Source: Escherichia coli (GTDB lineage Bacteria; Pseudomonadota; Gammaproteobacteria; Enterobacterales; Enterobacteriaceae). From it: a stretch of DNA of 64,000 bases. A program made the translations under genes and the position numbers. Shown piece by piece: positions 35,125 to 35,170 of the stretch; positions within the stretch are counted from its first letter, which is position 1, and each line of letters begins with the position of its first letter. Under the pieces are notes generated by a model. That model worked only from the letters and a program-made list of their open reading frames with translations, did not search any database and had not been told where the DNA came from. The stretch lies in the NCBI RefSeq assembly GCF_003991155.1, contig NZ_CP031293.1. One strand, 5' to 3'.

Positions 35125-35136
35125 CAGCACTGTCCG
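35125..35136. repeat. Target-site duplication (right copy) of IS4 insertion 1
   Basis: cagcactgtccg; here it forms the left arm of an intact hairpin cactgtccggc-aaaaacgatt-gccggacagtg (35128-35159) just downstream of ebgR. Confidence 0.85.
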
Positions 35137-35170
35137 GCAAAAACGATTGCCGGACAGTGTGTAAGGGGAT

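Follow-up and report, generated by a model that had tools for sequence, protein, structure and literature searches.

The window, a stretch of 64,000 nucleotides from Escherichia coli contig NZ_CP031293.1, carries two copies of the insertion sequence IS4, one between ebgR and ebgA and one between the convergent genes mug and rpoD. Both are flanked by target-site duplications that fall in or at predicted terminator hairpins, with the following features (coordinates, strand where assigned, description):

33676..33683, − strand: T-run of the predicted ebgR terminator, TTTATTTT on this strand; starts exactly 3 nt past duplication 1, as in a canonical half-site
33687..33698: target-site duplication 1, left copy, CAGCACTGTCCG, 12 bp
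33699..35124, − strand: IS4 copy 1, 1426 bp; canonical left end at 35124 and right end at 33699, with terminal inverted repeats found
33712..35040, − strand: transposase gene of copy 1, 442 aa counted from the ATG, with K->T within LMDKGYY
35125..35136: target-site duplication 1, right copy, CAGCACTGTCCG, 12 bp
35128..35159, − strand: ebgR terminator hairpin (the inverted repeat of the first-pass annotation), 13-bp arms and 6-nt loop
42604..42612: A-run (AAAAAA) of the predicted mug/rpoD terminator together with CGC, the outermost 3 bp of its stem; read on the − strand, this segment forms the U-run side for rpoD
42613..42625: target-site duplication 2, left copy, CACCGAAAAGGTG, 13 bp; contains inner stem, loop and inner stem of the mug/rpoD hairpin
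42626..44051, − strand: IS4 copy 2, 1426 bp, assigned by identity match and duplication
44052..44064: target-site duplication 2, right copy, CACCGAAAAGGTG, 13 bp
44065..44070: outer 3 bp of the stem (GCG) and TTT of the mug/rpoD terminator

IS4 elements and reconstructed target sites

The two copies lie in direct orientation, with the transposase on the − strand in both, and differ from each other at 1 nt. Over the full 1426 bp, they share 99.6% identity with the K-12 element (IS4/insG) and up to 99.9% with other E. coli copies. Besides this near-identity, their assignment to IS4 is based on a single DDE transposase, terminal inverted repeats (ends TAATGCCGATCAGTTAAGG and TAATGCCAGTCAGTTAAGC), and duplications of the ~11–13 bp class (12 and 13 bp here). 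The canonical IS4 protein matches the Pfam families PF13006 (Nterm_IS4) and PF01609 (DDE_Tnp_1), and the YREK motif, Y-(2)-R-(3)-E-(6)-K, is visible in the transposase translations. Of the 5426 complete E. coli genomes, 2686 contain IS4, at a maximum of 32 places per genome; together with Shigella, ~5,500 IS4 places are available.

The single nucleotide by which copy 1 differs lies 714 nt from position 33698 and replaces the lysine right after the second catalytic aspartate (LMDKGYY to LMDTGYY). This variant protein is recorded on one contig only (AZR87576.1) and is a private variant of the source strain; copy 1 may be impaired. IS4 itself contains two internal hairpins, each with a perfect 11-bp stem. 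One, followed by a T7 run (35046–35075 and 43973–44002), lies shortly before the transposase start codon on the coding strand and resembles a terminator that would act against read-in transcription, while the other (33703–33728 and 42630–42655) is within the right terminal repeat.

We reconstructed the empty sites by removing the IS and one copy of the duplication. At site 1, located 36–47 nt past the ebgR stop codon and 137 nt before the ebgA start, the inverted repeat previously noted downstream of ebgR is real and slightly longer than first described, with its 13-bp arms and 6-nt loop. It begins 12 nt after the ebgR stop codon and is strongly stable as RNA (−24.3 kcal/mol, z = −8.3). A 13–15 bp stem is followed by CCG and then by TTTATTTT, i.e., the order of a predicted intrinsic terminator. 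As the first-pass annotation had it, insertion 1 entered the left arm of this repeat: duplication 1 overlaps the arm by 9 nt, and the centers of duplication and hairpin are 13 nt apart. Thus, insertion 1 is not in the loop of the strong 13-bp hairpin and instead occupies the arm adjoining TTTATTTT, with a 3-nt offset and the default 12-bp stagger, and site 1 is a one-half-site target. We also considered a small imperfect hairpin centered on duplication 1 (CGGaCAG-tg-CTGCCG) as the real target and rejected it, as its folding energy (−2.9 kcal/mol, z = −0.2) is no better than that of shuffled sequences.

Site 2 lies between the convergent mug and rpoD and reads, when empty, AAAAAACGC-CACCGAAAAGGTG-GCGTTT. 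Its hairpin has a perfect 10-bp stem and a 5-nt loop (−16.5 and −17.9 kcal/mol for the two strands, z = −4.2 and −4.9), and A6 and T3 border its stem, the rpoD strand carrying T6; this again is the architecture of a predicted intrinsic terminator. The earlier placement of insertion 2 in this stem-loop (42613–42625) is exact to the nucleotide: duplication 2 is centered precisely on the hairpin. Site 2 is a perfect two-half-site target. A simple consensus terminator scan missed both empty sites and was thus uninformative. A REP-like element (gtgccgggtgcggcgtaacgcctgatccggcctac) at 44085–44120, ~20 nt from insertion 2, is untouched. REP targeting was considered as an explanation and rejected, given that this REP is intact and that both targets are unique terminator hairpins outside REP/BIME elements; an intact REP beside an insertion such as this one may be a source of earlier reports of an IS4–REP “association”.

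Both empty sites are 100% identical and uninterrupted in strain 2016C-3878. Across the 5426 complete E. coli genomes, the ebgR/ebgA site is uninterrupted in 5416 and the mug/rpoD site in 5349, with interruptions in 4 genomes for the former versus ~76 for the latter. IS4 occupies the mug/rpoD terminator in the window (42613–44064), in L234, and in L005. In strain RMDEC465 (L234, 10516–11968, NZ_CM177019.1), it is turned the other way round and flanked by the identical 13-bp duplication; additionally, mug is annotated as frameshifted in this strain.

Both insertions in the window are hence found in palindromic terminator-like structures, as initially proposed. Since the IS-free window contains only ~20 perfect inverted repeats with stems ≥9 bp, covering ~1% of bases, two out of two is unlikely to arise by chance.

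IS4 junctions beyond the window

We next assembled IS4 junctions from an exact transposase look-up and from exact scans for the 28-nt IS4 right end, the latter yielding 69 stretches in representative genomes, 23 in viral contigs, and at least 120 in metagenomes. After deduplication, 147 distinct right-end junctions were obtained among the matches listed, from E. coli/Shigella, other Enterobacterales, viral contigs, and metagenomes. A verifiable duplication was present for 30 complete copies (12 bp for 16, 13 bp for 10, 14 bp for 3, and 11 bp for 1), one of which is a second instance of the adhE/tdk site, so that the distinct complete sites number 29. All surveyed sites are those of resident IS4 copies, and as such have been filtered by selection. 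As background, we used 1.2 Mb of flanking DNA, taking either all positions or intergenic-like positions.

A TTT run starting +14 to +19 from the IS end was observed at 126 of the 147 sites (86%), and the duplication was palindromic (≥3 nested pairs from its ends) at 101 (69%). The check suggested in the first-pass annotation, namely an enrichment test for inverted repeats over many IS4 sites, gave a clear answer: the combination of a T-run with an inner stem ≥4 bp occurred at 44.9% of the 147 sites, compared to 0.42% of intergenic-like positions and 0.23% of all positions (odds ratio 193, p = 3e-114). Based on gene tables, most sites lie directly downstream of a gene, often between convergent genes; examples include adhE/tdk, eno/ygcG, degS/mdh, and rpoD/mug, as well as the 3′ ends of bamD, bipA, mdoH, and aroA. 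No orientation preference was evident, with right T-runs at 26 and left A-runs at 24 of the 30 complete sites, and the mdoH/yceK terminator has received IS4 both ways round, with the same duplication in each case (L002 versus L014).

Several further patterns emerged from these junctions. The identical 28-nt right end (L022–L090) is found in Kosakonia oryziphila (~16 junctions), Budvicia, Buttiauxella, Silvania, Dryocola, Yersinia thracica, Pectobacterium, and Photorhabdus; further matches, in records labelled as an Oscillospiraceae MAG and as Chryseobacterium, are probably due to contamination. In the same scan of representative genomes, the E. coli representative had no match. One repeated hairpin family (CAACC..GGTTGCCGTTTTGCTTTT) was struck at many of its members in Silvania and related metagenome contigs (L029–L033, L155, L160, L188, L225); dispersed and terminator-like, this repeat provides IS4 with a target in multiple copies. 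Finally, eight complete IS4 copies (L099, L118, L135, L152, L173, L179, L188, L226) lack a common duplication on their flanks, each flank looking like a canonical half-target. These copies are likely the product of recombination between IS4 elements, and would then mark rearrangement break-points.

Geometry of the IS4 target

The junctions define a symmetric consensus, 5′-AAAA-N3-^[C-N-N-C-(N3-6)-G-N-N-G]^-N3-TTTT-3′. Counted outward from the IS end across the 147 sites, C is found at position 1 in 80% and at position 4 in 72%, G at positions 9–12 in 46–61%, and T at positions 17–20 in 73–88%. The first-pass annotation had remarked that the two duplications in the window share little beyond a leading ca and a trailing g. 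This does not hold as a sign of weak sequence preference, as the shared pattern is the consensus itself, i.e., C at positions 1 and 4 and a G-rich other end.

The spacing between duplication and flanking runs is similarly constrained. From the end of the duplication to the T-run, the distance is exactly 3 nt in 22 of 26 complete sites, and from the end of the A-run to the start of the duplication it is 3 nt in 15 and 4 nt in 6 of the 24 sites having an A-run. The duplication itself varies from 11 to 14 bp among the 30 complete sites and is 6 nt shorter than the core between the runs in 15 of the 19 sites having both runs. Its variable length can be understood because strand-transfer positions are fixed 3 nt from the A- or T-run, so that the target sets the length. 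Furthermore, a perfect inverted repeat of 6–13 bp is centered exactly on the duplication center in 14 of the 29 complete sites.

Only core spacings of 17–20 nt are used, a size found for 45% of 304 available hairpins, the other 55% being shorter or longer. In the window, strong perfect hairpins with 12–14 bp stems are located at 36710–36740, 41863–41890, and 22651–22682; these have cores longer than 17–20 nt and are empty of IS4.

Contributions of base identity and palindromy

Base identity within hairpins can be compared between occupied sites and unoccupied hairpins of the same geometry beside a T-run. At duplication position 1, C is present in 74 of 90 occupied palindromic sites (82%) versus 45 of 145 unoccupied hairpins (31%; p = 1e-14), and at position 4 in 72% versus 32% (p = 2e-9). 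We also trained a half-site matrix, devoid of any pairing term, on other loci, leaving out the window sites, and scanned ~61,000 positions of the 61-kb IS-free window on both strands and for four lengths. The top-ranking position in the window was 42613 with k = 13, i.e., the true site 2 with its true duplication length, while the ebgR site ranked ninth by its best half-site. In addition, at approximately one third to one half of sites palindromy is weak or absent, but the T-run is still present at its usual offset; intragenic sites in bcsG and in a DUF4049 gene are among them. At the non-palindromic intragenic L007 and L008, runs as well as offsets are kept.

Pairing nonetheless exceeds what these preferences predict, as seen at the non-conserved stem positions. 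Pairs 2 and 3 of the stem are Watson–Crick in 49 and 42 of 66 sites, respectively, versus 18 and 21 expected from column composition, a level reached in 0 of 5000 permutations, and the three pairs outside the duplication are Watson–Crick in 17–20 of 29 sites versus ~10 expected. When intergenic T-runs were matched by matrix score, an in-register stem ≥4 bp was found in 7.6% of lenient controls versus 42% of true sites (p = 3e-16), and in 22% of strict controls versus 51% of true sites (p = 5e-4). Among intergenic AAA-N17-21-TTT sequences, 17% (GC ≥0.55) or 31% (GC ≥0.65) are palindromic, compared to 58% of true two-run sites. Palindromy is thus in ~2–4 fold excess relative to the strictest matched controls, and the excess is larger when lenient controls are used. 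Among stem positions that are not Watson–Crick, G.T combinations are over-represented, as expected if these palindromes are RNA terminators. Since complementarity could not be read by a protein sensing two half-sites independently, the remaining excess would mean that the controls under-match terminators, that selection removes other insertions, or that a structural or deformability term contributes.

Discussion

Taken together, these results make it probable that both insertions are ordinary and reflect the intrinsic target specificity of IS4, read largely from sequence and spacing rather than from hairpin shape alone. Specifically, a two-fold symmetric complex of transposase and IS4 ends would capture duplex DNA matching a symmetric, spacing-restricted consensus. 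This consensus, which with its offsets is enriched at the occupied sites and predicts them, would be read by the transposase on B-form DNA as two symmetric half-sites, each a GC-rich segment with the C/G pattern followed after 3 nt by a T-run, so that each strand-transfer position would lie 3 nt from an A- or T-run. One good half-site would suffice, with two at 17–20 nt spacing being the best target. In enterobacterial genomes, the sequences that fit are expected to be mostly short GC-rich hairpins between A- and T-runs, i.e., intrinsic and often bidirectional terminators. IS4 would therefore land in hairpins at gene 3′ ends, centered on the loop, because bidirectional terminators supply two half-sites. 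At site 1, the right arm of the long terminator hairpin would provide the GC-rich segment beside TTTATTTT. A residual contribution of palindromy to this process, e.g., through deformability or partial extrusion, seems to us unlikely.

The first-pass annotation favored a structural rather than purely sequence-based preference, whereby an extruded hairpin or cruciform, or a single-stranded hairpin, would be recognized at terminators with base identity secondary. This has an appreciable basis in the palindromy above matched controls, the stem positions that covary without being conserved, and the exact loop-centering of the duplication at 14 of 29 sites. It is also in line with the symmetry of the cuts about the palindrome at three of the four sites that have just one flanking run (L011, L023, L092), and with a stagger that varies from 11 to 14 bp, which would be unusual for a rigid complex on B-DNA. 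These observations uphold the palindromic part of the proposal, but the part that makes sequence secondary does not stand: C at positions 1 and 4 is strongly preferred within hairpins, sites with weak or no palindrome keep the T-run offset, cores span only 17–20 nt while longer hairpins in the window are empty, the long ebgR hairpin was entered at the fixed 3 nt from its T-run and not at its loop, and a matrix blind to pairing puts site 2 first in the window. Moreover, IS4 differs from the known hairpin-reading HUH transposases in that it moves by DDE cut-and-paste and generates duplications. On balance, we regard purely structure-specific targeting as improbable. Slightly less probable still is a combined process in which IS4 captures its target in a non-B form at terminators, either a mini-cruciform, partly extruded or melted, or a palindrome with a sharp kink. 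This reading is motivated by the residual excess in palindromy, the exact centering, and the target-determined stagger; if it were true, sequence would set the register, self-complementarity would cut the cost of deformation, and IS4 would represent a DDE transposase sensing the secondary-structure potential of DNA.

Selection on near-random insertions, with copies surviving only where they do no harm, e.g., in terminators that separate convergent genes, is an explanation that has to be weighed for any survey of resident, mostly intergenic copies, which all of our sites are. We consider it very improbable on its own, as a hairpin with a T-run occurs at only 0.42% of intergenic-like controls but 45% of sites, selection on location cannot yield nucleotide-exact centering or 3-nt offsets, independent insertions in opposite orientations duplicated the same 13 bp, and the intragenic L007 and L008 still fit the consensus. 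Mere coincidence, i.e., two insertions that happen to lie near inverted repeats, might have been entertained with n = 2 and with site 1 off-center in its hairpin; with ~1% of bases in stems ≥9 bp and the same pattern repeated over 147 sites, it can practically be set aside. Intrinsic specificity for sequence and spacing thus stays our preferred account of both insertions.

Against the AAA-N20-TTT consensus reported in earlier work, we judge the targeting of terminator-like palindromes to be an already known property of IS4 rather than a new system. The refinements made here may be under-documented: the fixed 3-nt offset to the runs, the C-N-N-C/G-N-N-G positions, the restricted spacing, and the occurrence of the pattern throughout Enterobacterales. 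Together, the consensus in its refined form and the 3-nt offset rule provide a simple predictor of IS4 sites and account for the odd variability in duplication length. IS4-expanded lineages include Shigella and EIEC (PMC7373316). In such lineages, intergenic terminators would be predictable hot spots, struck repeatedly and in both orientations. An insertion of this kind parts a gene from its terminator and can change read-through into neighbors; it rarely destroys coding sequence, making terminators a low-cost niche for IS4.

IS4 among elements that target terminators and palindromes

Mayaux et al. are said to have proposed, in 1984, the IS4 target consensus 5′-AAA-N20-TTT-3′, partly from an IS4 insertion in the pheST attenuator terminator, a consensus that the review of Mahillon and Chandler reportedly quotes. 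Duplications of 11–13 bp were reportedly described for IS4 by Habermann et al. in 1979 and Klaer et al. in 1981. That consensus agrees with ours in concerning the same element, with A- and T-runs ~20 bp apart around the duplication, in being pseudo-palindromic, and in having a terminator as its first example. It differs in that the survey gives AAAA-N3-[11–14 bp]-N3-TTTT, with runs 17–20 nt apart. Further additions of the survey are the C-N-N-C/G-N-N-G positions, offsets of exactly 3 nt, a duplication length tied to the spacing of the runs, and statistics for 147 sites drawn from Enterobacterales at large.

For elements of the same subgroup, De Palmenaer et al. 2008 (PMC2266710) describe conserved arms that flank the duplication, in a text that neither names terminators nor gives the IS4 consensus. 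Other members of the IS4 family recognize comparable targets, with 5′-GGGG(N6/N7)CCCC-3′ and its variable-length core for IS186 (Lee et al. 2016, PMC5009759, a study that also includes 8 de novo IS4 insertions) and 5′-GGG(N)5CCC-3′ for IS231A (Hallet et al. 1994, as cited in PMC2266710). Like IS4, both elements have a symmetric GC-rich target with fixed arms, a variable core that sets the length of the duplication, and insertions in both orientations. The IS4 arms are distinct, however, in carrying C-N-N-C/G-N-N-G together with A- and T-runs 3 nt outside. The natural targets differ as well, i.e., terminators for IS4 and GGGG/CCCC sites, often inside genes, for IS186 and IS231A.

Extragenic palindromes are also the target of the REP-targeting insertion sequences IS1397, ISKpn1, ISPpu9/10, and ISRm22, and IS4 itself was listed as REP-associated for 3 of 11 copies in S. 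flexneri 2457T (Tobes and Pareja 2006, PMC1525189). IS4 resembles these elements in its preference for extragenic palindromes, but its target here is a terminator hairpin and not a REP.

Class C (IIC) group II introns reportedly insert just after intrinsic terminator hairpins, according to Robart, Seo and Zimmerly in 2007. As with IS4, terminators offer these introns a low-cost home, with variable stems and a conserved geometry. IS4 carries none of the features of IS200/IS605-type or group IIC elements, namely an HUH/Y1 enzyme or an intron reverse transcriptase, insertion beside the hairpin, and absence of a duplication. During retrohoming, class C introns recognize a stem-loop in single-stranded DNA, and they come to lie behind the hairpin with no duplication formed, whereas IS4, a DDE transposon, enters the hairpin itself, the center of which becomes duplicated.
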